In this document: positions 13,615 to 61,082 of the stretch, piece by piece
Layout of the letters: each line of letters starts with the position of its first letter
How positions within the stretch are numbered: position 1 is the stretch's first letter
Source of the DNA: Sphingomonadaceae bacterium
GTDB taxonomy: Bacteria > Chloroflexota > UBA6077
Direction of reading: 5' to 3'
NCBI GenBank assembly: GCA_050261575.1
Contig: JBLNDL010000025.1
Location: 15,115-79,114 of the forward strand
Length of the DNA: 64,000 bases
Program-made: the position numbers and the translations under genes
The notes under the pieces: model-generated
The model's input: the letters and a program-made list of their open reading frames with translations, nothing else
What the model was told of the DNA's origin: nothing
Databases searched by the model: none

Positions 13615-16083
13615 CTATGCCTGAGTCTCGACCAGTTCCTTCGACTTGGTCTCGTACACAAGCTCGCCATCGCGGCAATCTACCACCACGGTCGTCCCAC
13701 GCTGGAACTCGCCGTTCAGCAGCCCTTCGGCCAGCCGGTCCTCCACCAGGTTCTGTATGGTCCGCCGCAGCGGCCGGGCACCGAACTTCGGGTCGAACCC
13801 CTTCTCCACCATGTAGTCCTTGGCGGCGTCGGTGACCTCCAACTCGATCTGCTGCTCGGTGAGAGCGCCACGCACCCGACCCAGCATCAGATCGACGATC
13901 CTCCGGATCTCCATCAGAGTCAGGGCACGGAACACCACAGTGGCGTCGATACGGTTCAGGAACTCCGGCCGGAAGAGGTTCTTCATCTCCCCCAGCACCT
14001 TGTCCTTCATCCGCTCGTAAGCCTGCTCGGCACTCTTGATCTCGTCCTGGGTGACCGCGAAGCCCAGCACCGCATCCCGCCGCAGCAGGTCGGCACCAAC
14101 GTTCGAGGTCATGATCAGGATCGTGTTGCGGAAGTCCACCTTCCGGCCCTTTGCATCCGTCAGGTGGCCGTCGTCCATGATCTGGAGCAGGATGTTGAAC
14201 ACCTCGGGGTGGGCCTTTTCGATCTCGTCCAGCAACACCACGGAGTAGGGCTTCCGCCGAACCGCCTCGGTAAGCTGTCCGCCCTCCTCGTAGCCGATGT
14301 ATCCAGGAGGTGCGCCCACCAGTCGGGCCACGGAGTGCCTCTCCATGAACTCCGACATGTCGATGCGGATCATGGCGTCCTCGCTGCCGAACATGAACTC
14401 CGCCAGAGCCCGCACCAACTCGGTCTTGCCCACGCCCGTGGGGCCCAAGAAGATGAAGGAGCCGATCGGCCGCTTGGGATCCTTCAGACCGGCCCTCGCA
14501 CGACGCACCGCCTTTGAGACGACGGAGATCGGCTCGTCCTGGCCGATGATCCTCTTGTGCAGCTCCTCCTCCATCCGCAGCAGTCGGGACGTCTCCTCCT
14601 CGGCGATACGCATCACCGGGATGCCGGTCCACATGGAGACCACCTCGGCGATGTCCTCCACGCCGACCACCGGCTTCTCGGCGGCCTGCTGCTCGTGCCA
14701 GCCCGACTCCATGTTGTCGATCTTGGCCCTGAGCTTCGCCTCCCGATCCCGCAGTTCGGCAGCCAGCTCGTACTGCTGGGCGTTGATGGCAGACTCCTTC
14801 TCGGTCTGGATCGTCTCCAGGGTCCGGATCGCCTCCTTCAGGCTGGGAGGCGAGACCGCCCTTCGCAGACGCACGCGGGAGGAGGCCTCGTCCACCAGGT
14901 CGATGGCCTTGTCGGGCAGGAAGCGATCCGTGATGAACCGGCTGGCCAGCTCGGCCGCCGCCTGCAGGGCCTCGTCGGAGATGATCAGCTTGTGATGCTG
15001 CTCGTACCGCTCCTTGATGCCGCGCAGGATCTCCACGGTCTCTTCGACCGTCGGCTCCTCCACGATGACCGGCTGGAAACGCCGCTCGAGAGCAGCATCC
15101 CGCTCGATGTACTTCCTGTACTCGTCCAGGGTGGTCGCGCCGATGGTCTGCAACTCACCCCGAGAGAGGGAGGGCTTCAGGATGTTGGCGGCGTCCACGG
15201 CGCCCTCGGCGGCTCCCGCACCCACCAGAGTGTGGAGCTCGTCGATGAAGAGCACGGAGTTGCCGCTGCCCTTGACCTCTTCGATGATCTTCTTCAGCCG
15301 CTCCTCAAACTCGCCCCGGTACTTCGTGCCAGCGACCAGGGACCCGATGTCCAGAGTGAGCAGCCGCTTGCCCAGAAGGGTCTCCGGCACGTCGCCCGAA
15401 GCGATACGCTGGGCCAGACCCTCCACGATCGCTGTCTTGCCCACACCCGGCTCGCCGATCAAGGCAGGGTTGTTCTTGGTGCGACGGGAGAGTATCTGTA
15501 TCACCCGCTCGATCTCCCGCGCTCGGCCGATGACGGGATCGAGCTTGCCGGCCCTGGCAGCCGCCGTGAGGTCCATGCCCATCTGGTCGATGACCGGAGT
15601 ACGGCTCGTCTGCTTGGACTCTTGCTGGGAGTAGGGCTGGCTCTGGTTCAGGACGTGGATGATCTGATTGCGCACCTTGTCGAGGCTCACACCCAGGCTC
15701 TCCAGCACGCCCGCGGCGATGCCCTCGCCCTCGCGGACCAGACCGAGAAGCAGGTGCTCGGTGCCGATGTAGTGGTGGTTGAGGCGGCGAGCCTCGTCCA
15801 CGGCCAACTCGATCACCTTCTTGGCTCTGGGCGTGAGGCCAATATCCCCGGTTACCGTCCGGTCACCCCTCCCGATGATGAACTCGACGGCACTCCGTAC
15901 CTTGTTGAGTTCCACACCCAGATTCGCCAGCACCTTGGCCGCTACACCGTCTCCCTCGCGGACCAGGCCGAGGAGCAGGTGCTCGGTGCCGATGTAGTTA
16001 TGGTTAAAGCGCTGGGCCTCCTCCTGCGCCAGGGTGAGGACCTTCCGCGCCCGTTCAGTGAACTTGTCGAATCGATCGCTCAT
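13615..16083 (-). CDS. clpC: ATP-dependent Clp protease ATP-binding subunit ClpC
   Basis: 822 aa. Duplicated Clp_N repeats ([15 protein letters not shown] x2), two AAA+ modules ([20 protein letters not shown]), UVR-like [11 protein letters not shown]. Confidence 0.92.
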
Positions 16084-39615: not shown

Positions 39616-40053
39616 GTGATTTCACGCCGCGGTGCCTATCGAAGGGACACCGGCACAACGAGGAGTGACGAAGGCTCCGCCAACAAGGTCGACCCCGAGA
39701 CTCTGGTGTTCATCCAGAAGTACCTCACTTCCTACACTAAGTGGGAGATGCTCAAGTACTTCGCCGAGAACCCAGACGCCGCGGAGACTGCGAGGGGATT
39801 CGCCCGCCGACTGAACAAGGACGTTCGTCAGATCTCAGAGGCGCTCGAGAGCCTGGCACGAACCGGCATCATCACCAACGGCAACAGCCGAAATCCCGAC
39901 GAGGGCGCATACACGCTGACCGCTGACGAGACCTTGAGATCCAGCCTTCTGAGGATTGGCGAGATGGCTCGGACCAACAACCGCTTCCGGCTGCTGGTCA
40001 ACTACCACATTACCAAGGCAAGCCTGGCCAAGTACAAATCGAACAGCTTCTGA
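39616..40053 (+). CDS. hypothetical winged-helix-like protein
   Basis: GTG start with a GAGGAG SD 5-6 nt upstream. ARGFARRLNKDVRQISEALESLARTGII resembles a wHTH recognition region. GC is visibly lower than in neighbouring genes. Confidence 0.5.
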   Translation: MISRRGAYRRDTGTTRSDEGSANKVDPETLVFIQKYLTSYTKWEMLKYFAENPDAAETARGFARRLNKDVRQISEALESLARTGIITNGNSRNPDEGAYTLTADETLRSSLLRIGEMARTNNRFRLLVNYHITKASLAKYKSNSF

Positions 40054-40246: not shown

Positions 40247-41482
40247 TCAATAGGGAAGATGAAGCCGCACCCCCGGCTTGACCTCCCGGGAACGCTTTCC
40301 CACGGCCGACGCGACGGCCACTTCCAGGTTCCACTCTACCAGACCGCGCACGAAGGGATGGTTCTGCAGCGACCGCTCGGGGGGCTCCAAAGCCAGTGCG
40401 GCGGCCACCGCGATGCGCGCCCGGTCCTCGCGGCCAAGCTTCCACAGCAAGTACGAAGTCTCCTCCAGCCGCCGCTTGAACAGGGCACGCACTCGCGCAT
40501 CGAACAGCGCCTGAATCGCCCTGTCCACCAGCGAGCGCTCTTGAGCCTCGCGGCTGACGGCGGCCAGCACCAGCCCACTCTGCTCAGCCGCCACTCTCTC
40601 CCGAACAAACGGCCCCAACGCCTCCTGGTCCAGAAGCCAGATGCGGAACATCTCCAGCCCCAGCAGTTCTGCGGATCGCTCGAGGTAGCGAGGGTCCCAC
40701 CGCACTTCCGCAGGGTTGATAACACTGTAGACCAGAGGTCGCTCGTACGATTGAAGCGGTCTACCGATTCGGTCTCGCCATACCAGATACTCGAACGGTA
40801 GGTGGGTCCCGCTGGCGGCGTTCAGGGCGTGAGCCTCCTCGATCAGATGGCGGGCGTAGTCGACGGGGACCTCGACCCAGGGCAAATCCTCGTCCGAGGC
40901 GAGCCGAGCGGCCTCTCGGTCGAAGCGGGAGCGCGCCATCTCGGCAGTGAAAACGTCGAGGATCCCCTTCTCCTCGTTCCACACGAGCCCTAGCAGAGCA
41001 GCGTCCGAGCCCCGAGGGAAATCCAGCCACATGGCTCGATTGCCTGCACCGTCGAAGGGGCTGACCAGCGCCCTCGCCAAGTACCAGCCCCGCACCTGCT
41101 CCTCCGCTGGAGCGGCGGCCGCCACCGAGGGGTGCACCCCCAGACTGGCCAGCCGATGGAGACCGCGGCGAACCGCCTTCCGTAGGTCCCCGCTCGCCCC
41201 GGCAGCCAGCACCTGCAGGCAGGAGGCAGCGGCGACATCCCGAATGGAAGATAGGGCTTCGACGACAGCCAATGCCAACGGCCCCGTCGCCACCGTGGCC
41301 AATCCCTGAAGAAGGGGTACGGCTTCCGCCCCCTTCTTCTTTGCCAGTCGCGTCAGCACCTCGCGTGCACCGGCGTCGGGCAAGCGGGCCAGTTCGTGAA
41401 GAAGGCCAGCCCTATCGTACCCCTCACCCGCCTCCACGGCGGCCTCGAGCATCTCCGCGACCCGCTCCGGCAACTCACTCAC
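40247..41482 (-). CDS. hypothetical protein (helical-repeat-like N-terminus)
   Basis: 411-aa ORF with protein-like composition and no recognisable catalytic motif. Confidence 0.6.
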   Translation of the reverse strand: MSELPERVAEMLEAAVEAGEGYDRAGLLHELARLPDAGAREVLTRLAKKKGAEAVPLLQGLATVATGPLALAVVEALSSIRDVAAASCLQVLAAGASGDLRKAVRRGLHRLASLGVHPSVAAAAPAEEQVRGWYLARALVSPFDGAGNRAMWLDFPRGSDAALLGLVWNEEKGILDVFTAEMARSRFDREAARLASDEDLPWVEVPVDYARHLIEEAHALNAASGTHLPFEYLVWRDRIGRPLQSYERPLVYSVINPAEVRWDPRYLERSAELLGLEMFRIWLLDQEALGPFVRERVAAEQSGLVLAAVSREAQERSLVDRAIQALFDARVRALFKRRLEETSYLLWKLGREDRARIAVAAALALEPPERSLQNHPFVRGLVEWNLEVAVASAVGKRSREVKPGVRLHLPY

Positions 41483-47990: not shown

Positions 47991-48376
47991 CGGCCCAGCC
48001 TTTGACTCAGGAGTGCGGCGGGAAGAGGGCGCCGTAAGGGGGACGCCGGTCGAGCAGGCCGAGCAAGCCCAGCAGCGTGCAGGTAGCTGCAAGAGGCCAC
48101 ATAACGCCGAAGCCCCGGCCCCGGCTCACGACGCCAAACCCCGCCGACCCCAGGGAAGATCCCCCCGTCGAAGCCAGCGAAGTAGGTGCTGAAGGTAGTA
48201 TCCCTGGGAGTCGTTGCCTCAAAATCTGTCTTACTCTCTTTGGAGGCTGGGGGCTGGGAGTGAGGCGCCAGAGCAAGCACGAGTTGGCCGCGGGGTGGCA
48301 GGAGCGACACTGGAAGGCTTCCAGAGAGGCTCAAGGCACAAAACACGGAGCCTGGATAAGCTCCAGGCCCCAAATC

Positions 48377-48421
48377 TTGGAGGCGACGAGCGGATTCGAA
48401 CCGCTGATAGAGGTTTTGCAG
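48377..48421 (-). repeat. displaced 3' half of tRNA-Cys (att-like direct repeat, left copy)
   Basis: 45 nt identical to 61008-61052 (TTGGAGGCGACGAGCGGATTCGAACCGCTGATAGAGGTTTTGCAG). The 5' half of the tRNA is absent here. Confidence 0.85.
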
Positions 48422-48849: not shown

Positions 48850-50031
48850 TCATTCGGTTATCCTGGCGATTCCGGCAGGACGCCACCCACCGTTCTCCTT
48901 GATGACCTCTGTCATAGTGTTGACGATCAACTCCGTGGCCGCGGAGTTGCTGGCGATCACCACTTGCCTGGCATTCCACAGAGACCCCAGCGCCTCTTCC
49001 AGTTGGCCAAGAGCCCTCTCGCACATCGCCTTCTGGTACCAGCACTCCCATAACCACCGGTTTGCCTCGACAGCACTGTTCGACGCCTCCAGCGCCTCCT
49101 GATAGCGACCCAGTTTGCACAACTCGGCCGACAGGAAGTCCCAGCCTCTGGCGTTTTCCGGGTCCAACCGGACCACCTGTCTGAACGACTCTGAGGCCTC
49201 ATCCTGCCTGTCGAGGAGGCCCTCGGCGCCGCCTCGGTAGTACCAGGCCACGCTGTGCTCGGGGCACTCCTCCACCACCGCTCTTAGGAGCTCTAGGGCC
49301 TTCTCGCCCTCCCCGGCGTCTCCCAGCCTCATTGCCTCCTGCATCAGCGGGAACACCACAGGGCCTTCCAGTTCGCTGAGCCGTTTCTCGGCGTGCTCCC
49401 GTATCGACTCCTCACCGGCCTTCGCCAGCCGCACGGCCCACCGGTAGGAGCGGATGGCATCGCTCCTCCTACCGAGGGATTCCTCCACTCGCCCCCTATT
49501 GTCCCAGGGGACTGCGCTGTCCGGATCGGACTGACTGGCGAACCCGTAGGCCTCGACTGCCTTCTCGTTTTCGTCCAGCATCACCATCAGGCGACCCAGG
49601 TTGATCCAGGCAGGCGCGTAGCGCTGGTCGATCTCTATGGCCCTCTGGTAGCAGTCGATCGCGGTTGCAGGCTGGTCCAGGTCCACCGCGCACAGCCCCG
49701 CGCAGACCCAGGCCGCCTTGTTCTGGGGATCGATCTCAACGGCTCTGGTGTGGCATTGGATCGCTTCTCTGGCTCTGCCGAGATCCTGTAGCCGGTTGCC
49801 TTTGCTCATCCAGAATCCCGAGTTATTCGGGTCGAGTTGTATCGCCCGGTCGTAGAGGTCGAGCGCTCTCTCCGGTTCTCCCATGAGCGCCACACAGGTT
49901 GCTTTGTCCGCCCAGGCGCCAGCTCTTCTCGGATCGATCGCCAATACCTTGTCGAAAAGCTCAATCGCTTCGGTGTATCTCCCCTGTGAGGATAGGGTGC
50001 TGGCGAGGATGTGACCGGCCTCAACCTCCAT
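48850..50031 (-). CDS. TPR-repeat protein
   Basis: 393 aa from ATG 50031. Repeated A..Y..AL..DP....AW motifs throughout. The upstream part of the 845-aa ORF overlaps the helicase gene in another frame and is rejected. Confidence 0.75.
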   Translation of the reverse strand: MEVEAGHILASTLSSQGRYTEAIELFDKVLAIDPRRAGAWADKATCVALMGEPERALDLYDRAIQLDPNNSGFWMSKGNRLQDLGRAREAIQCHTRAVEIDPQNKAAWVCAGLCAVDLDQPATAIDCYQRAIEIDQRYAPAWINLGRLMVMLDENEKAVEAYGFASQSDPDSAVPWDNRGRVEESLGRRSDAIRSYRWAVRLAKAGEESIREHAEKRLSELEGPVVFPLMQEAMRLGDAGEGEKALELLRAVVEECPEHSVAWYYRGGAEGLLDRQDEASESFRQVVRLDPENARGWDFLSAELCKLGRYQEALEASNSAVEANRWLWECWYQKAMCERALGQLEEALGSLWNARQVVIASNSAATELIVNTMTEVIKENGGWRPAGIARITE

Positions 50032-50090: not shown

Positions 50091-53000
50091 TCAGATCCAC
50101 TTCTCGCTCCTCTCTCTCATGATCTCGAGCACCCCCCAGCGTGGGTCCTGGAGGGCGGCGTCCAGCTCGGTGAAAGACTGCCTCGCCTTGATCTGGCCGG
50201 GTGTGAGCTGCTCCGCAAAGGCCGCCAGGCGGGCCTGAAGCTCTGGCGACCACACGGGGTAACCGCCCAGCTTTTCCAGACACTGCTTCATCCTCTGGCC
50301 CGCGGCGCCTCGGCGCTTCAACACCTGGATCAACACCTCGTTGGGATCGCCTGCGCCAGGCCCTATGGTGACCAGGTACCGCCCCAACTCCATCTTCAGA
50401 CGCTCCCTCGCGGCTGCAACCTGTTGCTCCAGCCCCTCCCGCTCTCGCTGGGCCGCGGTAGCCTCCATGGCCGCTACCTCTGCCTCCGCCAGCTTTCTTG
50501 CCTTCTCCCGAGCCGCGGCGAGCGCCGAGGCGTCGGCTCCGGTTCCGTCCCAGTTGTTCACCAGGGAGGTAAGCTGCGACATCGAGGTGACCGGTCGGCA
50601 CCCAGCCCCGTCGACCCACAGCGCGACCGAGCGCCGGAAGGAGCCGTGGCTGTGGCTCTCCACCACCAGCGGCAACCTCTCCCCTGCCCTGGTCAGTCCC
50701 TTGGCAAGTTCCTTGAACCTCGGGTCCAGCGGCGAGAGGGGAAGGACCCGGGGGTCGCGCTCGAGTTCCTGGAGAGTGCCCGAGTAGACGGCCCGCTTCA
50801 TCCCGGGCACCGTGACCGTCCACAGGCTGCGCTTCTTGTCCTTCTTCGCCGTCGGCCCGAACTCGCCGGTGAGCATTCCTAGCGCGGCTTCGATCTCTGC
50901 CATCGAGAGCCCGGCAACCTCGTCTCCCGGTACGACCGCCTCGCTCTGGAGATAGCTCTCGGTAGCCAGGGCGTCGCCCTCGACCGCGGCCGCTGCTTTC
51001 TCGAGCGCGTCGGGGTCCACGGGCACCTGGCCCAGCAGCATCTTCCTCGCGATCGCCAGTACAGGCTGCATCGGACCGACGAAGTGCTCGAAGAGCCCGC
51101 ACCGCCGCCTGAGCGCGTTGTATACTAGCTCGTCGACGCTCTTCTCCAGGAAAAAGTTCACGACCCGGACTTCTTTCTGCTTCTGGCCGATCCTGTCGAT
51201 GCGGCCGATCCGCTGCTCCACCTTGCTCGGGTTCCACGGCAGGTCGTAGTTGATCACCGCCCCCGCGGACTGGAGGTTGAGGCCCTCGCTCGCGGCGTCG
51301 GTGCACACCAGGATGCGCAGCTTGCCATCCCTGAGATCCCTGGTGATGGCGTCCTTGGTAACCGGCTTCCAATCCTTGCCGTCCCACTTCTCTCCGCCCT
51401 CTCCGCAGTAGCAGCCGAGCGCCTCTCCGTAGTGGGCTACAAGGTTCTGCCGGAGGTAGACCATCGTGTCCGAGTACTCGGTGAAGATCAGCACGGGGCG
51501 ACCGTCCTCGGTCACTCGCCGTAGCTGGTCGTAGAACTGCTCCAGCTTGCTGTCCTTGGCTCCGAGGTCCGCCAGTTCCCGAAGGAGGTGGTTCACCTCC
51601 TCCAACTCCGCCCTGGCAATGTCGGGGCTCGTGGGGTAGGCGGCGGAGACCTTCAGCACGTCATCTCCCACCCCCGCGTCCGGCAGATCGCGGGCATCCG
51701 GCGCGTCCTCCGGCTCTATGTCCCAGTCCAGGGCCTGCTGGGCGGCCACGCGCTCCAGGCCGCGCCTTCGCCGGTTAAGGCTCTCGTAGAGCGCCCTGGG
51801 CGAGCTGGACGCCCTCCGCCGGTATATCGTCATCACGAAGCCCTTACCGGCCTTCTCCTTCTCCAACTCCTCGAAGCGGCGCTTGATGTAGGTCTCGATC
51901 CCCTCGTAGACGTGGCGCTCCCGTTCATCGGTGAAGTCGTAGCGAACGTCTTCGACCCGGCGGTCCGGAGGCGCGGTGTCGAGCAAGCCCATCCTGTAGT
52001 AGTGCCTGAGGGTATCGCGCGTGTTACGGTGCATCCTGCGGCCTAGAGGCGAGCCACGCCTCATCCAGCCCGCCACGCTCGCCCGCTCCGAGGACTTGCA
52101 GAAACGCAGCCGCCGGGCGATGTCCGACACGCCGCCCTTCCAGGCTTCGGCTCCATCGGGGGCAGGGAAGTGAGGGTCGCTGGAGATGAGGCTCGCGGCG
52201 CTGATGGCCGTCTCCTGGTCGCATCGTCCGCCTGCCACGGCGGAGATCGCCTGGTAGTAATCGCGTACCCTCCCGAACTCCGCCAGCCACTCGCCCCCCT
52301 CGCCGAGCACGGACAGGAGGTCCCATGGCTCCCATGGCTGGGTCTGCATCGGAGTCGCGCTGAGGAGAAGGATCCCCCTGGCCTTCCCTGCGTACTGGAG
52401 CTTCCGCAGCAGGCTCAGGAGGAGGTTGGCGCCGTTGAACTCGCCCTCGACAGGCCTGGCCCTCCTGGCCGCGTGCGCCTCGTCCATCAGCACGAGATCC
52501 CAGGTGGGCCCCGCGAGGATCTTCTGGACGTTGGCGTCCAGCCTCGCCAGCTCGCGGCTCAAGATCAGCGAGTCCTCCTCCAACGCGGCTGCGAGGTCGA
52601 CGTTCGACCGGGTCGAGCCGTCGGGCCAGATCAGCGAGGCGCCCTCCAACCTCGGAAAGACGAGCCCGCCCTTCTCCCGTAGCTCCCCCTGCCACTGGCG
52701 GAGCAGACCTGCCGGAGGCAGGACCAGCACCCGCTTCACCCCGCGCCCTGCCATCAGGCGCCGCATCACCAGGATCGCTTCCACCGTCTTCCCCAGGCCG
52801 ACCTCGTCGCACAGCAGCCGGCCCATCGGCCAGGCCGAGGCGGTTTCCTCCACGACACGGCGCTGGTGGGGCCAGGTGGATACCATGGCCGTCGCGTCGC
52901 AGGACGCGCCGCCGCCGGAGAGAAACGGCGCCTCGGTGATGAAGCGCCAGACCATGGCGGCCCTCTGCCTGGGGAGCGCGTCCGTCGGTTCCTGGGTCGG

Positions 53001-53762
53001 CGGCTTCGGGGGCGCCAGCTTCACCAGACGGAGCCTGAGCGCCTCAGGAAGATCGACGGTGTGGACATCAGGATGGGTGTCGCTCCAGAGCAGTTCGAAC
53101 TGCGTCGTCATCTCCTGATGTCGCTCGAGATCCTCCCACGACGTCGAGACCTCGAATTGCTCGTAGTTGCCCGCGAGCCCCTGGGCCGATTCGTTGCCGG
53201 AGCCCGCGAATACCACCGCGTCGCCGGCCCCGTCCGTGACGATGCCGAACTTGCCGTGGACTATCCCCTCCCCACGGCGCATCACTCCCACCCTCACCGC
53301 GAGAAGCCCCTCTTTGACGAGCCAGGCGAGCATCTTCAGGCGGGCCTTCTCAAGTGCCTGCTGAGGGTTCTTGAAGCGCCGCCTGAGGTGGGCCTCCAGC
53401 GCCTTCGTATCGCCAGTCTCGGTGAGCGCGTCCACGTCCTCGGCGGACAGCTCCTCGTTGACGAGGAGACGTACGGCGGGCCTGGGAGCAGCGTCCCCCA
53501 TTGCCGTGAGCCGCTCGATGAGGGGCCCGAAGCCCCGCGCCGCCGCGGAGAGGACGGAGCTGGAGAAGTAGGCACAGCAGCGATCGTACCTGACCGCCTC
53601 CCTCAGCGCTGGCACGTACAGTTCCTCCAGCAGAGCCTGGTCCGGCCCCCGCAGGAAGCGCCGCCACGCGCGGGACCGGAGGCCGCCGGAAAGCGAAATG
53701 TGGCTGGCTGCGACGCCGGCCGGCTGGGCGGTCAACCTACTCACCGTCTCCCTCCTCTTCAT
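50091..53762 (-). CDS. PLD-type (HKD) nuclease domain fused to SNF2-family helicase
   Basis: HKD HGKFGIVTD..FAGSGNES. Helicase motifs DEVGLGKT (I), LMDEAHAAR (II), LLSATP (III), QRIGRIDRIGQ (VI). Start at ATG 53762, or GTG 53744. Confidence 0.85.
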   Translation of the reverse strand: MKRRETVSRLTAQPAGVAASHISLSGGLRSRAWRRFLRGPDQALLEELYVPALREAVRYDRCCAYFSSSVLSAAARGFGPLIERLTAMGDAAPRPAVRLLVNEELSAEDVDALTETGDTKALEAHLRRRFKNPQQALEKARLKMLAWLVKEGLLAVRVGVMRRGEGIVHGKFGIVTDGAGDAVVFAGSGNESAQGLAGNYEQFEVSTSWEDLERHQEMTTQFELLWSDTHPDVHTVDLPEALRLRLVKLAPPKPPTQEPTDALPRQRAAMVWRFITEAPFLSGGGASCDATAMVSTWPHQRRVVEETASAWPMGRLLCDEVGLGKTVEAILVMRRLMAGRGVKRVLVLPPAGLLRQWQGELREKGGLVFPRLEGASLIWPDGSTRSNVDLAAALEEDSLILSRELARLDANVQKILAGPTWDLVLMDEAHAARRARPVEGEFNGANLLLSLLRKLQYAGKARGILLLSATPMQTQPWEPWDLLSVLGEGGEWLAEFGRVRDYYQAISAVAGGRCDQETAISAASLISSDPHFPAPDGAEAWKGGVSDIARRLRFCKSSERASVAGWMRRGSPLGRRMHRNTRDTLRHYYRMGLLDTAPPDRRVEDVRYDFTDERERHVYEGIETYIKRRFEELEKEKAGKGFVMTIYRRRASSSPRALYESLNRRRRGLERVAAQQALDWDIEPEDAPDARDLPDAGVGDDVLKVSAAYPTSPDIARAELEEVNHLLRELADLGAKDSKLEQFYDQLRRVTEDGRPVLIFTEYSDTMVYLRQNLVAHYGEALGCYCGEGGEKWDGKDWKPVTKDAITRDLRDGKLRILVCTDAASEGLNLQSAGAVINYDLPWNPSKVEQRIGRIDRIGQKQKEVRVVNFFLEKSVDELVYNALRRRCGLFEHFVGPMQPVLAIARKMLLGQVPVDPDALEKAAAAVEGDALATESYLQSEAVVPGDEVAGLSMAEIEAALGMLTGEFGPTAKKDKKRSLWTVTVPGMKRAVYSGTLQELERDPRVLPLSPLDPRFKELAKGLTRAGERLPLVVESHSHGSFRRSVALWVDGAGCRPVTSMSQLTSLVNNWDGTGADASALAAAREKARKLAEAEVAAMEATAAQREREGLEQQVAAARERLKMELGRYLVTIGPGAGDPNEVLIQVLKRRGAAGQRMKQCLEKLGGYPVWSPELQARLAAFAEQLTPGQIKARQSFTELDAALQDPRWGVLEIMRERSEKWI

Positions 53763-56721
53763 CCTCGCCGGACTCCAGGCTCTCCTCCAGTTGCGTCCAG
53801 ACCATCTGCGGAGAGGTCCTTTCCGTCCAGTCCGGCGGCTCGATCCCGAAAACGGGTTTGAGTAGGGCGTGCCAGGCGCGGAACTCGGGGAAGATGGAGG
53901 CAACGGAGAGCTTACCGGTGTCGTGTCGAACGGCCTCGGGCGCGGCGAGGACCAGCGCCTCCATCAGCTTAGCCACGGGGCTTTCCCTCGTCCATCGCTG
54001 CTGGTTCGCGACCGCCTTGGCCGCGCCGACTCCACCCCCGCCGCTCCCCGCCTCGATGTACGCGAGAGCGAGGGCATGGCAGCCGTCCATGGCAGACCGG
54101 AAGCGCGGGTCGTTGGGGTGGACCTTCAGCGCTTGCTTCTTCGAGACCTTCTTCTTTCCCTTCGCCACGGTGCCGAACAGCGTCTCCTCGTACTCCTCCG
54201 GCTTCAGCGCCTGGTCGCGGCGCCGCTCCCTGGCGGGCACCATGCGGATGCTGTCGCCGCTCTTCGTGACGAGCCCAGCGGCAACGAGAGAGTCCACGCT
54301 CATCCCCACCGCGTGGCCTAGCAGCTTCGCTTCGTTGAAGCGGAACTCGGCCGCCCCCAACACGTCCCAGCAGAGCAGTGCGAAGCGTCCCTCCGCCTCG
54401 ACTCCCTCCAGGCCTCGTCTGGCAAGCTGCTCTACGCGCCACTCGCTGACGGCGTCGGCGGCCTCGTCGATGGCGGCCGCGACGGCCACCGGCTCCCCCG
54501 TGTCGGTCCGCACTTCTGAGTACCGGCTGTACACCTCCATAGCGGGGCCGAAGGATCCGACGAGCTGGTCGACCGCGTTGAGGCCCTCCTGCTTTAACTG
54601 GTTCGCCTTCGCCCGGGCCCTCTCGCGGATCTCCTCCCTGATGGCGTCGAAGTAGCCGACCCCCGCCCCGGGACGGCGCTTGCGCGCCACCAGCAGCACG
54701 GTGCTCTGGGCGGCGTTCTTGCGGGCCTGGTGGAGCGAGTGCTGGCTCTCGGTCTTCACCGGCCAAGTGGCGGTGATGGTGAAGCCGGCCTTGATCAGCG
54801 AGGAGAACAGCGCCTCCCAGGCCTCCTGCTTCTTGTGGGTGAACATCACGGTAAGGACCCCGTCGTCGCGCAGGATGCGCCGGCACTCCGCGAACACGTC
54901 GCCCATGAGCCGCTGGTAGAAAGCGTTGGCCTCGGCCCGTGCCTCGGCGGCGGTCAGCTCGCCGCCCTTTCGGTGGCGCTCCACGTTGACGACCGCCTCC
55001 TCGGTGTGGTCGCACAGGTAGGTGGAGAACCACTCGGGCCGGCGGTGCCCCTGGGTGCGCTTCAGCCAGACGTAGAAGAAGTCCGCCAACTCCGAGTACT
55101 GGACGTTATCCGCGTAAGGAGGATCCACCACCACAGCGGTGATGCTCCCGTCCTCGATCTGGGGCATGCTGGTGGCCGAGCCGAAGAAGACGGTGGCGGG
55201 GTTAGCAGCGGGGCGACGAGGGAGTCTGCAGATGTCCTCATAGGCGCTCAAGACGTTGTCGATCGCCCAGGCGAGACCTTCCCCACTCCCACATGGGGCC
55301 ATCTCGGAGAAGGTAGACTTGAACGCAAAGTCATGGCGATCGAAGACGCTTCTGATCACCTGCCTGGGAGCATGCCACGATGCCAGGATCGAGTTGTAGT
55401 TGGCCCATTTGTCCAGGACGAAGGCGAGAAGGTGCTCGACTGCCCTTCCGACCTCCTCACCTTCGGCCTCGATAATCTCTGGGCGGAGCTTCCGAAGCTC
55501 CTCCACCATCACGCCGAGGCCAAGCAACTGCCGCGGGGAGAACATGTCCGCCCACCGCGGCATGCCGTAGACCCTCGGGCGCTCGTCGCTTGTCACCTCG
55601 GGATACAACTCAGTCGGGATGATCCCATCCCGCTCCCAGGCCGGTCGCAGCCGCGCCAACTCCTTCTCCGCGGCAGCCAGAGCGCGCAGGTCCTCCTGCT
55701 CGGGCGGCTGGAAGGTGAGCCCTTGAGGGGTTTTCACTCCCACGGCGTACAACGCACTGCCCATCTCCCCTGCCTGGGCCTTCGCCTTGATGTACTCCGA
55801 CGGAATCTGGTGCCCGCTGAAGATGGAGACGCCCTTTCCGTCGGCGTAAGTAGGAGCCGGGGGCATCTTGAGCTGCCCCGCCATGCGCCCAATCTCCCTG
55901 ATCCTGACAGTCCACGTGCCCCGCCGCGAATCCACGATCGGCTCGGCCACGATTCTCTTGCCGGAGGACGGTCTGAGGAGATGCCAGTCCGGCACCAGGG
56001 GTGTGTGCGGGTTGCCGGGCGTGTCGGGGCACGGCACCGTGCGGGCGAAGATGTAAGCGTGCACCGAGGAGAAGGGGTGCTTAGGGAAGTACTTCCCGAC
56101 CCTCTCCTCAACTCGATTCAACCAGACCTCGCTCCATGCTCGAGCCTTAGCTGCTATTGAGGCACCATGGCGAAACGGGTAGTCGATCGTGGCCTCGAGT
56201 GCTGAGCAGGCGACCGGGTTGTACTCGTTGGCAATGGTCTGGATGCCCAGCCGTGCGCTTTCCAGCGGTATGGAGCCACCACCCGCCATGGGGTCAATCA
56301 CCGTGACACTGCCCCAGAGCGCAAGTACCGCATCGTGGACCTTCCGGAGATCATCCTCGCGGAGCACATGCTTGAAGGCACGGTCGCAGCCGAAACCGCC
56401 GGGCACCTGGTAGCCAGTGTCCATCAACTGCCTTACTTGTACGATCTCCTCGCCCGGCCTGCCGAACCCCAGCAAACGCTCAAAGACGTCCCTGGGGAAG
56501 TCGGCAGGGAGCAAGGACGCCAGCACCGCAGCACGCGAAGCGGTAAGCGGCCGTCGCGCCCACCACACGTGCAGAAACGTCGTGGGAGCGAGTGCGCTGG
56601 CGCTTCCCCGTTCTCTCATGCACTCAACCCCGATGGCCGCGGCCGGGAGCCACTCCTCGATCAGCAGCCGCGGGGGCTCACTGCCCCTGCTTACCTCTCC
56701 CTTCGACAGAGTCTCGGTCAT
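53737..56721 (-). CDS. DUF1156-type DNA amino-methyltransferase (N6-A or N4-C)
   Basis: N-terminal FLHVWWARRPLTASRA, SAM motif I VIDPMAGGGSIP, motif IV VVDPPYADNV about 390 aa later. 994 aa. Confidence 0.85.
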   Translation of the reverse strand: MTETLSKGEVSRGSEPPRLLIEEWLPAAAIGVECMRERGSASALAPTTFLHVWWARRPLTASRAAVLASLLPADFPRDVFERLLGFGRPGEEIVQVRQLMDTGYQVPGGFGCDRAFKHVLREDDLRKVHDAVLALWGSVTVIDPMAGGGSIPLESARLGIQTIANEYNPVACSALEATIDYPFRHGASIAAKARAWSEVWLNRVEERVGKYFPKHPFSSVHAYIFARTVPCPDTPGNPHTPLVPDWHLLRPSSGKRIVAEPIVDSRRGTWTVRIREIGRMAGQLKMPPAPTYADGKGVSIFSGHQIPSEYIKAKAQAGEMGSALYAVGVKTPQGLTFQPPEQEDLRALAAAEKELARLRPAWERDGIIPTELYPEVTSDERPRVYGMPRWADMFSPRQLLGLGVMVEELRKLRPEIIEAEGEEVGRAVEHLLAFVLDKWANYNSILASWHAPRQVIRSVFDRHDFAFKSTFSEMAPCGSGEGLAWAIDNVLSAYEDICRLPRRPAANPATVFFGSATSMPQIEDGSITAVVVDPPYADNVQYSELADFFYVWLKRTQGHRRPEWFSTYLCDHTEEAVVNVERHRKGGELTAAEARAEANAFYQRLMGDVFAECRRILRDDGVLTVMFTHKKQEAWEALFSSLIKAGFTITATWPVKTESQHSLHQARKNAAQSTVLLVARKRRPGAGVGYFDAIREEIRERARAKANQLKQEGLNAVDQLVGSFGPAMEVYSRYSEVRTDTGEPVAVAAAIDEAADAVSEWRVEQLARRGLEGVEAEGRFALLCWDVLGAAEFRFNEAKLLGHAVGMSVDSLVAAGLVTKSGDSIRMVPARERRRDQALKPEEYEETLFGTVAKGKKKVSKKQALKVHPNDPRFRSAMDGCHALALAYIEAGSGGGGVGAAKAVANQQRWTRESPVAKLMEALVLAAPEAVRHDTGKLSVASIFPEFRAWHALLKPVFGIEPPDWTERTSPQMVWTQLEESLESGEDEEEGDGE

Positions 56722-57146
56722 TCAACGGCCTCCGTCAGGATCCTCAGCGCACGCACCGCCCTGGAGCGGGCGCCGCCGTCGGTCAGCCCGAGCCACCAGG
56801 CAGCCTCAGCCCCGTCCAGCCTCCTCAGCGCCTCTCCCGACCGGAAGAGCCGCTCGGCGTCCCTCAGGCCGGTCGAAATCAGGGCATACAATGCCGTCCG
56901 AGCGCCCCAATCCTCGTCTAAAGGTAGGAACGGCCCGGGCGCGAGCCTCGTCCCGTTGCCCCCGGATGCCCTGGCGGCCTCCCGCAACAGGGGTCCCCCT
57001 GACAAGAAGGCCAGGGCCGAGATGGCGGCCATCTTCCGCAGCCTGTCCCTGCCCCCGTCGACAAGCCTGCGCCTGTACACTATTGCCGCGTCGCCCTCGC
57101 GGCGGCGGACTACCCTCAGGGCAAAGGGCGCCTCTCTGAGCTTCAT
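56718..57146 (-). CDS. small hypothetical protein embedded in the cassette
   Basis: 142 aa from ATG 57146. ATGA overlaps at both ends (57143-57146 and 56718-56721). No motif recognised. Confidence 0.55.
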   Translation of the reverse strand: MKLREAPFALRVVRRREGDAAIVYRRRLVDGGRDRLRKMAAISALAFLSGGPLLREAARASGGNGTRLAPGPFLPLDEDWGARTALYALISTGLRDAERLFRSGEALRRLDGAEAAWWLGLTDGGARSRAVRALRILTEAVE

Positions 57147-60097
57147 CTCGCACCTCCCTTCGCCTCGGAGGTCTTGCCGAATGTGGCTGTGGGGGAGATC
57201 GCCTCTCCCGCCTTCTCCGCGGCCTGCTCGATGGTGTGAGCCATCCCAGATCTTCCACTGCCGAAGCTCAGCGTTAGGACCGCCTCGTAGGCGGCGCCTT
57301 CCGCCAGCGCGTTGAACAGCGTTCTCGCTGTCTCGAGCGGCCTCGCGGGGTGGTTGAGGCTTACCTCGCACGCCTTGAAGGAGAGGGTGCCTCCCTGCTT
57401 CGCGCTCCCGTCCACGTCGACGTCCAGTGTCACGCTCTCCGCACCGAAAGGCTGCGCCACCGCCGCGAGAAGCGCCGCATCGGCGGGCTTCCCGGCGGTC
57501 AGCCTCAGGGAGAGGAGCGGGCGCCCGCTCGCGTACTCCAGCGCCTTCGCCCAGGTAGTCGCGGTCACCTTCGGTGGATCGGGCGGGGTCCATATCCCCC
57601 CTCCACCATCGGGCAAACCGCCCCCACCGGTTCCGGTGCTGTCGTCTTCCTTCGGTGCCTCCTCTACGTCCTCGCGCATCCACTCCACGGCCTCGGCGCT
57701 GTCGGCGCGAGACAGGAGCGTCGCGTCGTCCAGATCAATCGTGGTGAGCATTCCTTCGCTCTTCCGGCGCTCCCCGAGGTCGCCGGTAGTCCGGTAGCCG
57801 CCGCAGTAGGCAGAGCCGTCCTCCAGCCGTACCGCCAGAAGGCCCTTCTCGACAGCCTTCAGGATGGTCTGGGAAACCACACTCGAGTTGGGGAGGAGGC
57901 GAAGGCCCTTCATGGAGAGGAAGCGCTCGTGGACCGCCCTTGCGCTGTACACTTCCTGTTTGCCCGCCTCCGGGACGGCGCCCGGCAGGACCTCCTTCAT
58001 GAGCCGGTCGAGATCCAGCGTGTCCCCTGGCTGGTAGATCAGCTTCTTCTCGTCCAGGAACTTCTTCACGATCGCCTGGCCCTTGACCTGGCGGAGCAGA
58101 TCGTCGTCGCTCGTCTGGAGCGGCTCCTCCAACCTGTAGACTGTCCCGCTTGCGAGCACCACCCGGTCGAACGCCCTCATCGTGTCCAGGCGGAAGCGCT
58201 TGACCAGCCCCGGCCGTACCCTGCCGAGCTGCTCCTTGACCAGCTTCCCCTGCTCGCCCTTCGCCTCCTCCTCGATCCTCGTCGCCGCTATCAGCCGCTG
58301 GGCCCTCTCCACGGCGATGTTGAATGCAGGGATGTTCGGCGCGACCGCGAGGATGGAGTTCAAGAAGCGCCGCGGCATAGGGGCTTCCGGCACCGAGTCG
58401 TCCTCGTACCTGCACACCCGCTTCGCCATCGCCTCGTCCTCGGCCAGGACCAACTGCAGCTCGCGGCTCTCGGGCACCTGGCGTGGGCTCGCGGGCAAGG
58501 AGACGAGCTTGAACACCGGGCCCTGGAAGTAGGCCTGCGCCTCGGCCATCACCCAGCCGCGAGCGTCCTCCAACGGCACCTTTGCCATCTGCTCCTCGAT
58601 CTGCTTCAGCACGTTCGGCTCGTATCGGAACTGGTACCCGTCTCCCCCAGCCATCGGGTAGAGGTGCCAGCACACCCCGGCCAGGCGGTCCATGGCGTCC
58701 ACGGGCTCGGGGCCGGCTTCATCCGGCCGCAGCACTGCCAGCGTGACCTGCTGCCGGTCCAGGCCGGCATTCGGAGCCATCTGGATGCTTTCCAGCAGTA
58801 TGGCCGAGGCCACACGGCGGTGGATCCCCCTCGGTTCCTCGCCGTCCAACTCTCCGGCATGGGTGATCACGTCTGCCTCCACGGCGGCGATGAAGCGGTC
58901 CCTGTCCAGCCGCTGAAGGAGGTCGGCCTTGATCCGGTCACTCGACCAATCCACGTCCCCCGCGCTGATCACCTCCAAGTCGCGCCCCGACTCCCAGACG
59001 TCTCGGATGATCCTGGCGAAGAGTCGGAGCACCCCGCGGCTCTTCTGGAAGGCTCCCAGGGCGGAGAGCCGTTCCTGGGCGGTTTCCAGCAGACGCGGAT
59101 GGAACGGATAGCATTCCAGCAGCAGGCGGTCGTACTCTGGGGTCTTTGCCGCAACGGGCAGCAGGCCGGGATAGGCCTGGGAAACGCGCTGGTAGAGGTC
59201 GTGGTAGAGGGCGGAGGCGGCCTGCGCCGCTCCTGTGTCGACGTGCTCGAAGAGCCGACGGACGATGACCCTCGCCGACTCCCCGCCGATCGGGTCGAAC
59301 TCGCTGGCCTTCCTGCCGAAGATGTCGTCCAACTTCGCTCCGGCGCCGGGCAGCGCCCTGGCGAGCCTGTCGGCTTCCCCCGCGTACGCCCGCTGCTCCC
59401 TCGGGTCCGTGACCACGAGGGCGGCCTGATGTCGGGCTCCCACCACCCCGGCAAGGGTCGTGATGAAGCCGAGCAGGTTCCCCTGGCCTCGCTCGGAGAG
59501 CTTCGCCATGTAGATCACCAGCTCGTCCAGGAGGAACAAGGCCGGCTCGGCCGGCATCACGTCCCTGATCTGCCCCTCGTGGGGAGAGGCCTCGGGATCG
59601 TCCGCCTCGCCCAGGATCTTGAGGCCATCCCTGCCGGCCAGTTGATAGAAGATTTCCCCCCACAGGCTGTGGATCTGGATCCCCTCATGAACATCGAAGA
59701 CCGGCACCCCGGCCTTGCCGGCATCGACGGCGACAACCTTGACGCTCTTGGGCCTCCCCGCATGGGGGAGCAGCTCTGTGCCCAGGGTCGCGTCGGCGAT
59801 GTTCTTCGCCAGGTGCCACATCGCGATGAGGGTGTGGGTCTTGCCCCCACCGAAGCCGGTGCTCAGCCCCACTGTGATGCCGGCCTCGGTGGTGCTCGCC
59901 AGCCGCCCGAAGACCGCGGAGATCACCTTCCTCAGCCGCTCGGCCGGGTGGGTGTTGCGGAAGAAGAGTGCGGGGTTGCCGTAAACCGGGGGCGCCTCCC
60001 CCGTGATGACGTGGTAGAAGTCCGCGGCGAAGATTGCGTCGTCGAGGTCGCCTTTGAGCACTTCTGGTCGAGGCTTGCAGCCTGTGAGAACTCCCAT
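57143..60097 (-). CDS. large P-loop ATPase, DUF499 / BrxC(PglY)-like
   Basis: Walker A STGFGGGKTHTL, Walker B ALFLLDELVIY. 984 aa from ATG 60097, preceded by an AAGGAG SD. Confidence 0.8.
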   Translation of the reverse strand: MGVLTGCKPRPEVLKGDLDDAIFAADFYHVITGEAPPVYGNPALFFRNTHPAERLRKVISAVFGRLASTTEAGITVGLSTGFGGGKTHTLIAMWHLAKNIADATLGTELLPHAGRPKSVKVVAVDAGKAGVPVFDVHEGIQIHSLWGEIFYQLAGRDGLKILGEADDPEASPHEGQIRDVMPAEPALFLLDELVIYMAKLSERGQGNLLGFITTLAGVVGARHQAALVVTDPREQRAYAGEADRLARALPGAGAKLDDIFGRKASEFDPIGGESARVIVRRLFEHVDTGAAQAASALYHDLYQRVSQAYPGLLPVAAKTPEYDRLLLECYPFHPRLLETAQERLSALGAFQKSRGVLRLFARIIRDVWESGRDLEVISAGDVDWSSDRIKADLLQRLDRDRFIAAVEADVITHAGELDGEEPRGIHRRVASAILLESIQMAPNAGLDRQQVTLAVLRPDEAGPEPVDAMDRLAGVCWHLYPMAGGDGYQFRYEPNVLKQIEEQMAKVPLEDARGWVMAEAQAYFQGPVFKLVSLPASPRQVPESRELQLVLAEDEAMAKRVCRYEDDSVPEAPMPRRFLNSILAVAPNIPAFNIAVERAQRLIAATRIEEEAKGEQGKLVKEQLGRVRPGLVKRFRLDTMRAFDRVVLASGTVYRLEEPLQTSDDDLLRQVKGQAIVKKFLDEKKLIYQPGDTLDLDRLMKEVLPGAVPEAGKQEVYSARAVHERFLSMKGLRLLPNSSVVSQTILKAVEKGLLAVRLEDGSAYCGGYRTTGDLGERRKSEGMLTTIDLDDATLLSRADSAEAVEWMREDVEEAPKEDDSTGTGGGGLPDGGGGIWTPPDPPKVTATTWAKALEYASGRPLLSLRLTAGKPADAALLAAVAQPFGAESVTLDVDVDGSAKQGGTLSFKACEVSLNHPARPLETARTLFNALAEGAAYEAVLTLSFGSGRSGMAHTIEQAAEKAGEAISPTATFGKTSEAKGGAR

Positions 60098-60354
60098 GAG
60101 TGAACGCTCCTTTGCGGAATTCAGGAGGTCGGCAGCAAACGAGGAAACCGGAGCAGGAGCGGGACCGCGCGGTTGCGCCCGGCAGGGACCGCTCAGGTGC
60201 ATCAGCTACTACCAGAGAACACCACGGTTTGCAATCCCCCAAAAGCTCATGCCACCGCAGGCGATAGATGTACCGTCCGGCATCCGCCCTGGGTTAGAAG
60301 GGGTCTCCCAACATTGTACAGACAACTTGCAATCAGGCACGGTACACTGCCGGC

Positions 60355-60976: not shown

Positions 60977-61001
60977 GGGCTCTGGAGCGGCTCCAGAGCC
61001 C
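60977..61001 (-). terminator. hairpin immediately downstream of tRNA-Cys, inside the island-derived flank
   Basis: GGGCTCTGGAGC-G-GCTCCAGAGCCC, 8 nt after the tRNA 3' end. Confidence 0.55.
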
Positions 61002-61008
61002 AACATAT

Positions 61009-61082
61009 TGGAGGCGACGAGCGGATTCGAACCGCTGATAGAGGTTTTGCAGACCTCCGCCTTGCCACTTGGCCACGTCGCC
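61009..61082 (-). tRNA. tRNA-Cys (anticodon GCA), CCA encoded
   Basis: Acceptor GGCGACG/CGTCGCC, anticodon stem GAGGT/ACCTC with loop CT-GCA-AA, T arm AGCGG-TTCGAAT-CCGCT, discriminator U, CCA. Confidence 0.92.

Follow-up and report, generated by a model that had tools for sequence, protein, structure and literature searches.

A probable restriction-modification-like defence system of BR type-2/MANTIS architecture with a DUF7680 small subunit in a Chloroflexota tRNA-Cys island

We examined a 64,000-nucleotide stretch of DNA (hereafter the window) from Sphingomonadaceae bacterium (GTDB lineage Bacteria; Chloroflexota; UBA6077), covering positions 15,115 to 79,114 of the forward strand of contig JBLNDL010000025.1 in GenBank assembly GCA_050261575.1. 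Positions 50091-60097 of the window hold four intact, co-directional open reading frames (ORFs) on the minus strand, of 984, 142, 994 and 1223 aa. In order, these encode a DUF499 AAA+ ATPase, a 142-aa protein, a DUF1156 N6-adenine methyltransferase, and a helicase in which an N-terminal PLD (HKD) nuclease domain is fused to an Snf2 motor. Apart from this gene content and order, the locus shows translational coupling, catalytic motifs that are intact and placement in a mobile island, and its four genes strictly co-occur across phyla. By analogy with characterized relatives, we propose with a probability of about 0.8 that the locus is an ATP-dependent restriction-modification-like defence system with the architecture and gene order of the BREX-related (BR) type-2 systems, now called MANTIS. 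Details transferred from those relatives, above all the role of the 142-aa DUF7680 protein, are held with less confidence. Sequence comparisons place the locus in what appears to be a separate sub-lineage, with DUF7680 as its small subunit and with an ATPase and methyltransferase closer to those of Hma (BR type-1) than to those of canonical MANTIS.

An earlier note on this DNA, made from the sequence alone, knew of no experimental characterization of such a cassette and implied that it was novel. That view did not survive comparison with the literature: the architecture has been catalogued both as Hma and as BR type-2, and a mechanism has been published for MANTIS. Hma, a trio of helicase, methylase and ATPase, was described by Payne et al. 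2021 (PMC8565338), and Hma loci were later shown often to hold embedded defence genes. HmaA is an Snf2 helicase with a C-terminal PD-(D/E)xK nuclease and protects against T4 (Liu et al. 2024, PMC11232893). The "Type-2 DUF499-centred BREX-related system" was reported from 1120 taxa and consists of a DUF499 ATPase, a standalone DUF3780 protein, a DUF1156 N6-methyltransferase, and a helicase in which an HKD nuclease replaces the N-terminal TUDOR domain (Rakesh & Krishnan, NAR 2026, PMC12839542). BR type-2, formerly Gao_RL/Gao_29, was then renamed MANTIS (Shaw et al., bioRxiv, 24 September 2026, 10.64898/2026.09.23.753747); as related by Shaw et al., Gao et al. 2020 had tested Gao_RL/Gao_29 for phage restriction. 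In Pseudomonas MANTIS, the ATPase MtsA loads the methyltransferase MtsC on DNA, the small dimer MtsB stimulates methylation, and an asymmetric 6-bp site becomes hemimethylated (10.64898/2026.09.23.753747). The same study found that restriction requires all four proteins and both ATPase activities, that inverted unmodified sites are restricted best, and that MtsD resembles SauUSI, forming a dimer with a single PLD active site. NCBIfam holds four 'anti-phage-associated' equivalog models (NF042961-64) for the MANTIS genes, as found on a B. cereus plasmid.

The domain assignments on which our proposal builds are well supported. Pfam, PADLOC and NCBIfam upheld the calls of DUF499, DUF1156, PLD and Snf2 made in the earlier note, with PLDc_2 falling below its Pfam cut-off, and each motif quoted there was located at its expected place in its protein. 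The ATPase matches Pfam DUF499 (E 2.5e-18) and the PADLOC models HmaC (1.5e-69) and DUF499 (3.9e-24), with a Walker A motif, GFGGGKTHTL, at aa 81-90 and a Walker B motif, FLLDELVIY, at aa 188-196. The methyltransferase matches Pfam DUF1156 (E 9e-17) and N6_N4_Mtase, as well as PADLOC HmaB (1e-83) and DUF1156_MTase. It contains HVWWARRPL at aa 51-59, VIDPMAGGGSIP at aa 141-152, within which motif I reads (M)AGGG (aa 146-150), and DPPY (motif IV) at aa 533-536. The helicase matches Pfam SNF2-rel_dom and Helicase_C together with PADLOC PLD_Helicase (2.2e-70) and HmaA (3.3e-53). The PADLOC matches to HmaC, HmaB and PLD_Helicase largely overturn the claim that the system is uncharacterized. Sequence searches of the PDB returned no match for the ATPase or the methyltransferase; with the helicase they returned generic Snf2 proteins only, with RapA at the top.

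Both enzymatic halves of the helicase look complete. The nuclease motifs HGKFGIVTD (aa 169-177) and GSGNES (aa 187-192) are followed by DEVGLGKT (319-326), MDEAH (426-430), SAT (467-471) and QRIGRIDRIGQ (850-860), so that Snf2 motifs I, II, III and VI are intact. In an alignment of six sequences that includes the Bacillus cereus MANTIS protein, the HKD residues H169, K171, G187, S188, N190 and E191 are invariant. Because each chain carries one HKD motif, the PLD nuclease should act as a dimer. No Pfam family was found N-terminal of the PLD match, and the absence of a TUDOR domain is judged from Pfam, not from structure.

The catalytic parts of these proteins are more conserved than their C-terminal parts. 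Across the DUF7680 lineage, the ATPase is ~60% identical in its N-terminal region and ~40% in its C-terminal region, and its C-terminal third is fast-evolving. The helicase has a fast-evolving C-terminal extension of ~320 aa, and its C-terminal region is 26-49% identical. Taken together, the C-terminal parts of the ATPase and helicase are ~30-45% conserved, compared with ~60-75% for the catalytic parts. This pattern is consistent with a published proposal that sensor or adaptor domains evolve fast. We also looked for a hypervariable target-recognition segment in the methyltransferase, and sliding-window identity gave mild dips only. As a separate observation, a Gly/Pro-rich low-complexity linker (…TGTGGGGLPDGGGGIWTPPDPP…) at aa ~811-840 of the ATPase (window 59600-57650) is the most variable and gap-prone ATPase segment across the lineage; it divides the conserved body from the last C-terminal domain.

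The four genes are tightly packed. The ORFs, their coordinates and their overlaps were read from the sequence and are as the earlier note gave them. ATGA stop/start overlaps at 57143-57146 and 56718-56721, seen by direct reading of the sequence, couple the first three genes. The methyltransferase gene stops at TAG (53737-53739), and the helicase gene has two candidate starts, ATG at 53762, which gives a 26-nt overlap with the methyltransferase gene, and GTG at 53744, which gives an 8-nt overlap. The exact start is ambiguous because helicase homologues are alignable only from about residue 25-30. Independent gene calls on record, for a Logan contig of this locus, start the helicase at 53762 and give 1223 aa. 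The ATPase start at 60097 has AAGGAG 9 nt upstream and agrees with the gene call on record, and identical ATPase, small-protein and methyltransferase products are called genes on a 117,855-bp NCBI contig. All four genes show coding-like GC by codon position (GC3 0.83-0.87, GC2 0.46-0.59) in a genome of 65% GC. The GC3 pattern, the strong family matches and the hundreds of homologues show that these ORFs are not chance products of a GC-rich genome. The plus strand also has a 917-aa ORF (57350-60103), an antisense shadow of the ATPase gene. Terminator-like sites in a scan of the locus occurred at chance level.

The 142-aa protein, in which the earlier note had seen no motif, matches Pfam DUF7680 along its whole length (PF24728, E 4e-8); PADLOC gave no match. 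It has 603 homologues at E <= 1e-3, nearly all of 141-145 aa and ~60% identical across distant phyla, with the conserved motifs DxDWG, ExxWW and RxxRALRIL. An AlphaFold2 model (pLDDT 89.7) has six helices and four strands, of which three are N-terminal and pack with the fourth, a short one; it has no structural neighbour in the PDB at E < 0.1. We found no mention of DUF7680 in the literature searched, nor in the BR paper or its supplements when these were searched by family name and sequence motifs.

We then asked how consistently DUF7680 occurs with the other three genes. A scan of species-representative genomes gave 80 DUF7680 loci from many phyla, including Acidobacteriota, Planctomycetota, Chloroflexota, Pseudomonadota, Verrucomicrobiota, Armatimonadota, Gemmatimonadota and others. 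Upstream genes were counted in loci with at least 3 kb of upstream sequence (n=65) and downstream genes in loci with at least 9 kb of downstream sequence (n=33). In 65/65 loci the next gene upstream, on the same strand, encodes a DUF499 ATPase; it usually lies within ~140 nt and often overlaps. The methyltransferase and then the PLD-Snf2 helicase follow downstream in 31 of the 33. The same four-gene order is found on metagenome contigs beside integrases and on plasmids of haloarchaea and cyanobacteria; the small proteins of these plasmids match DUF7680 at 1.7e-37 to 5e-48. In these data DUF7680 is a conserved, system-specific component, whose fixed length and position are the behaviour of a subunit and not of a variable passenger.

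Inserted genes occupy 0.8-3.8 kb between the DUF7680 and methyltransferase genes in 16 of the 31 complete loci (10 kb in one locus, L028), and DUF7680-type loci often adjoin integrases and carry embedded toxin or defence-type genes. At this junction, other loci hold a Polbeta nucleotidyltransferase, NYN, a MazF toxin-antitoxin pair, or a ThiF plus multiubiquitin set. The ATPase/DUF7680 junction is hardly ever interrupted. A Pseudanabaena plasmid locus has a 207-aa ORF without a Pfam match (L008:16283-16906) between the methyltransferase and a shorter PLD-helicase of 1053 aa.

This distribution bears on a rival explanation, in which the locus is an Hma system whose helicase has exchanged its C-terminal PD-(D/E)xK nuclease for an N-terminal PLD domain, and in which the small gene is an embedded passenger. 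The ATPase and methyltransferase do score best against PADLOC HmaC and HmaB, and in BLASTP they are nearer to Hma of Fervidibacter than to B. cereus MANTIS (210 vs 99 bits for the ATPase, 323 vs 116 bits for the methyltransferase). Hma loci are also known to host embedded defence genes, and both systems use an Snf2 helicase-nuclease as effector. However, Hma is ordered helicase-first and has no dedicated small subunit, whereas the order here is ATPase-first, with the small gene, methyltransferase and helicase following as in MANTIS. The length and position of DUF7680 are fixed in 65/65 loci, and the genes that do vary lie between DUF7680 and the methyltransferase. The helicase itself is closer to MtsD than to HmaA (216 vs 160 bits in BLASTP), a pattern also seen in the PADLOC scores. 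Hma helicases have a C-terminal PD-(D/E)xK domain (NOV_C/DUF3883) and an N-terminal TUDOR domain, whereas a Pfam scan of the helicase here found an N-terminal PLD and no NOV_C/PD-(D/E)xK domain; Fervidibacter HmaA, for contrast, matches NOV_C at E 2.7e-22. We consider the Hma explanation unlikely.

The proposal of a BR type-2/MANTIS architecture accounts for the gene order and the effector. As in the B. cereus locus, the genes lie in the order A-B-C-D in one operon. The DUF499 ATPase with Walker A and B and the DUF1156 alpha-type N6-adenine methyltransferase (xAGGG, DPPY) are both present, a single-HKD PLD domain is fused to the N-terminus of an SF2/Snf2 motor and has its HKD residues in common with B. 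cereus MtsD, and there is no PglZ. Likeness to BR type-2 extends to the same ATPase, methyltransferase and helicase core, an HKD nuclease in place of the N-terminal TUDOR, a standalone small alpha+beta protein inside the locus, a fast-evolving ATPase C-terminus, and a helicase length that fits the published 'long form' with extra C-terminal domains. By comparison with B. cereus MtsD, the helicase is ~320 aa longer at its C-terminus (1223 vs 905 aa), and the Arc/CopG gene MtsR of MANTIS is absent here.

The main difference lies in the small subunit, which is DUF7680 (142 aa) here and DUF3780 (~196 aa) in MANTIS. The BR type-2 paper gives DUF3780 as the small protein in 98% of taxa and does not mention DUF7680, although its DUF3780 label may cover DUF7680 loci. 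The small protein has no match to Pfam DUF3780 even at E 10 and none to NF042961. Comparison of DUF7680 with DUF3780 by hhalign gave a probability of 0.2-0.3% with an alignment set against a single sequence, with two narrow alignments and with a diversified DUF7680 alignment. A DUF7680 profile run against 1.84 billion representatives gave 115 matches (E <= 0.001), mostly of 36-170 aa, whose membership of DUF3780 was unchecked. By the profile-profile, bridging and structural routes, DUF7680 could not be shown to be a diverged DUF3780. Three weaker signs lean toward homology. In the best hhalign alignment, which is not significant, PLDEDWG lies opposite KLDRFLG and AEAAWW opposite PEERWW; these motifs are highly conserved within their own families. 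The order of secondary-structure elements is alike in both models, of which the DUF3780 model is unreliable (pLDDT 48). The published 'DUF3780' fold, with four antiparallel strands and five helices, fits the DUF7680 model.

DUF3780/MtsB proteins are ~80% identical between Bacillus, Desulfosporosinus, Pseudomonas and E. coli, an unusually high value for a defence subunit, which suggests either strong constraint or a recent, wide spread by horizontal transfer.

Several observations weigh against our proposal. In BLASTP, the ATPase and methyltransferase share 22-24% identity with MtsA and MtsC of B. cereus (ATPase 24%), and the large proteins score far under the NCBIfam equivalog cut-offs: 118 bits against 1200 for the ATPase (DUF499_antiphage, NF042962), 193 against 1000 for the methyltransferase (DUF1156_antiphage), and 340 against 1100 for the helicase (phospholipD_antiphage, NF042964, its best NCBIfam match). 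Because DUF7680 has no significant similarity to DUF3780, giving it the role of MtsB is an assumption. Even for MANTIS, the nuclease activity of MtsD was not reconstituted in vitro (10.64898/2026.09.23.753747). A promoter scan of the locus gave no sigma-70-like site, the sigma-70 consensus being weak evidence in Chloroflexota, and the island ORFs scanned include no integrase. The function of DUF7680-type systems, including this one, rests on analogy.

Other defence systems fit less well. The earlier note had pointed out that PglZ, DrmA/DrmB and type I-III partners are missing, and this holds: beyond the cassette, the only other island genes encode a small HTH protein and a TPR protein. BREX (types 1-6) was rejected, as no PglZ was found among the coding ORFs scanned in the island. 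BREX type 3 (BrxC, PglXI, BrxHII, PglZ and others) shares a homologous triad of ATPase, methyltransferase and Snf2 helicase, along with self-marking by methylation; it differs in that BrxA, BrxB/BrxF and BrxL, as well as PglZ, are absent here and in that the helicase here carries a fused PLD nuclease as effector. DISARM was rejected because the island has no DUF1998 (DrmB) gene; the helicase matches the DrmD and DrmA models through its Snf2 core only. Classical type I-III restriction-modification was rejected because its defining genes are missing. SauUSI is autonomous, and its own recognition domain targets modified DNA. In the present system, by analogy with MANTIS, the ATPase, small protein and methyltransferase would instead be expected to do the targeting, with unmodified DNA as the target. 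A dimeric HKD nuclease with an SF2 motor is common to both, and the MANTIS authors report that MtsD is structurally similar to SauUSI (10.64898/2026.09.23.753747).

If the cassette works as Pseudomonas MANTIS does, the DUF499 AAA+ ATPase would load the DUF1156 methyltransferase onto a short asymmetric recognition site. The small protein would serve as a co-activator, leading to N6-adenine methylation of one strand at host sites, and ATP hydrolysis would permit turnover. On unmodified incoming DNA, the same site-bound complex would license a dimer of the PLD-Snf2 protein, in which two HKD halves would form a single nuclease site. This dimer would then translocate and cut, best between inverted sites. 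The earlier note had suggested that methylation distinguishes self from non-self, that the helicase-nuclease is the effector and that the ATPase is a sensor or loader. By analogy, that outline, with loading as the role of the ATPase, agrees with the MANTIS findings (10.64898/2026.09.23.753747).

The cassette lies within a 12.6-kb island at tRNA-Cys (Table 1), a setting that the earlier note did not mention. The island is bounded by direct repeats of 55 nt that are 95% identical to each other, share a long exact core and duplicate the 3' half of tRNA-Cys(GCA) in the manner of an att site. The intact tRNA-Cys(GCA) gene (61009-61082, minus strand) is the first in a cluster of five tRNA genes. A terminator-like hairpin (48346-48372) lies at the left boundary, and similar hairpins follow both repeat copies. 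The island was also assembled as a separate contig of 12,646 bp (Logan, run SRR24035586, L091), a result that either an assembly break at the repeat or excision as a circle could explain. A variant 98% identical to it, with the genes intact, was found in SRR24035588 (L092).

Table 1. Coordinates of the cassette genes and of other island features in the window.
Feature	Position	Strand	Basis
MtsA/HmaC-like DUF499 AAA+ ATPase, 984 aa	57143..60097	-	Pfam, PADLOC, motifs
DUF7680 small protein, 142 aa	56718..57146	-	Pfam PF24728, homologues, AlphaFold2 model
MtsC/HmaB-like DUF1156 N6-adenine DNA methyltransferase, 994 aa	53737..56721	-	Pfam, PADLOC, motifs
MtsD-like PLD-Snf2 effector, 1223 aa	50091..53762 (start 53762 or 53744)	-	Pfam, PADLOC, HKD alignment
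TPR-repeat protein	48850..50031	-	Pfam TPR families
Small HTH protein, HTH_Tnp_1-like, 125 aa	60355..60732	+	Pfam
Left island boundary, displaced tRNA-Cys 3' half	48367..48421	.	55-nt direct repeat
Right island boundary, repeat within intact tRNA-Cys(GCA)	60998..61052	.	55-nt direct repeat

Neither of the two remaining island genes is conserved along with the system. The TPR gene starts 59 nt downstream of the helicase gene on the same strand; it is island cargo and was rejected as a fifth component, as a TPR homologue follows the helicase in one related locus only (L080). In that unrelated DUF7680-type locus, a TPR-repeat protein (L080:12454-14421) lies directly 3' of the helicase as it does in the window, which is probably a coincidence. 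The HTH gene is divergent from the ATPase gene, and the 98%-identical variant also has it beside the cassette. None of the 80 related loci carries it, and it was rejected as a sixth component; its product could be an island regulator or a transposase remnant.

Two further explanations turn on this setting. Restriction-modification-like modules can stabilize mobile elements. The cassette is almost the sole cargo of a small island without an integrase, as would suit an addiction or stabilization module of the island, or an epigenetic regulator, whose main role is not anti-phage. Against this, homologous architecture restricts phages and plasmids (10.64898/2026.09.23.753747), and such loci host embedded defence genes. 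We regard such a main role as quite improbable, and addiction and anti-phage roles are not mutually exclusive. The cassette might instead be an inactive remnant stranded in a decayed island, where no integrase was found and a short HTH_Tnp_1-like ORF alone is left beside the tRNA gene. The four ORFs are full length relative to their homologues, with intact catalytic motifs and normal codon-position GC, and the 98%-identical variant from a second sample keeps the same genes intact, which makes decay very improbable indeed. All of these alternatives, including the Hma explanation, are disfavoured because DUF7680 is conserved and fixed in position, because the architecture has published restriction phenotypes, and because the genes are intact.

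The remaining window is ordinary chromosome. It encodes a cysteinyl-tRNA synthetase, RadA-like and DnaX-like proteins, a ClpC-like ATPase, an S1-domain protein, DNA polymerase I, FtsK, a MASE3 histidine kinase, MFS transporters and OMP decarboxylase. The closest named homologues of the DNA polymerase I come from uncultured Chloroflexota. Two ORFs outside the island are recorded as side observations: a 411-aa ORF with coding-type GC3 and no Pfam match (window 40247-41482, minus strand) and a 145-aa ORF with a sub-threshold match to the HVO_A0114 family (window 39616-40053, plus strand).

What looked like an orphan "BREX without PglZ" now has its place in a family that has been named, counted and given a first mechanism. 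What interest remains lies in the DUF7680 sub-lineage, which is found in at least 80 species-level genomes from many bacterial phyla and on haloarchaeal and cyanobacterial plasmids. The role of MtsB is the least understood step of MANTIS, and a second small-subunit family in its slot, whether unrelated or highly diverged, offers a natural comparison for working out the function of that subunit. We tentatively raise the possibility, which we think rather less than even, that DUF7680 cassettes are a distinct subtype that pairs a Hma-like ATPase and methyltransferase with a MANTIS-like PLD-Snf2 effector, and that their co-activator has no homology to MtsB or has diverged from it too far to be recognized. 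If so, methylation activation or site reading may differ from MANTIS, and PLD-type effectors would generally need a small adaptor, one recruited more than once. In addition, the interval between the DUF7680 and methyltransferase genes, which carries insertions in about half of the loci, could be mined for candidate defence genes.

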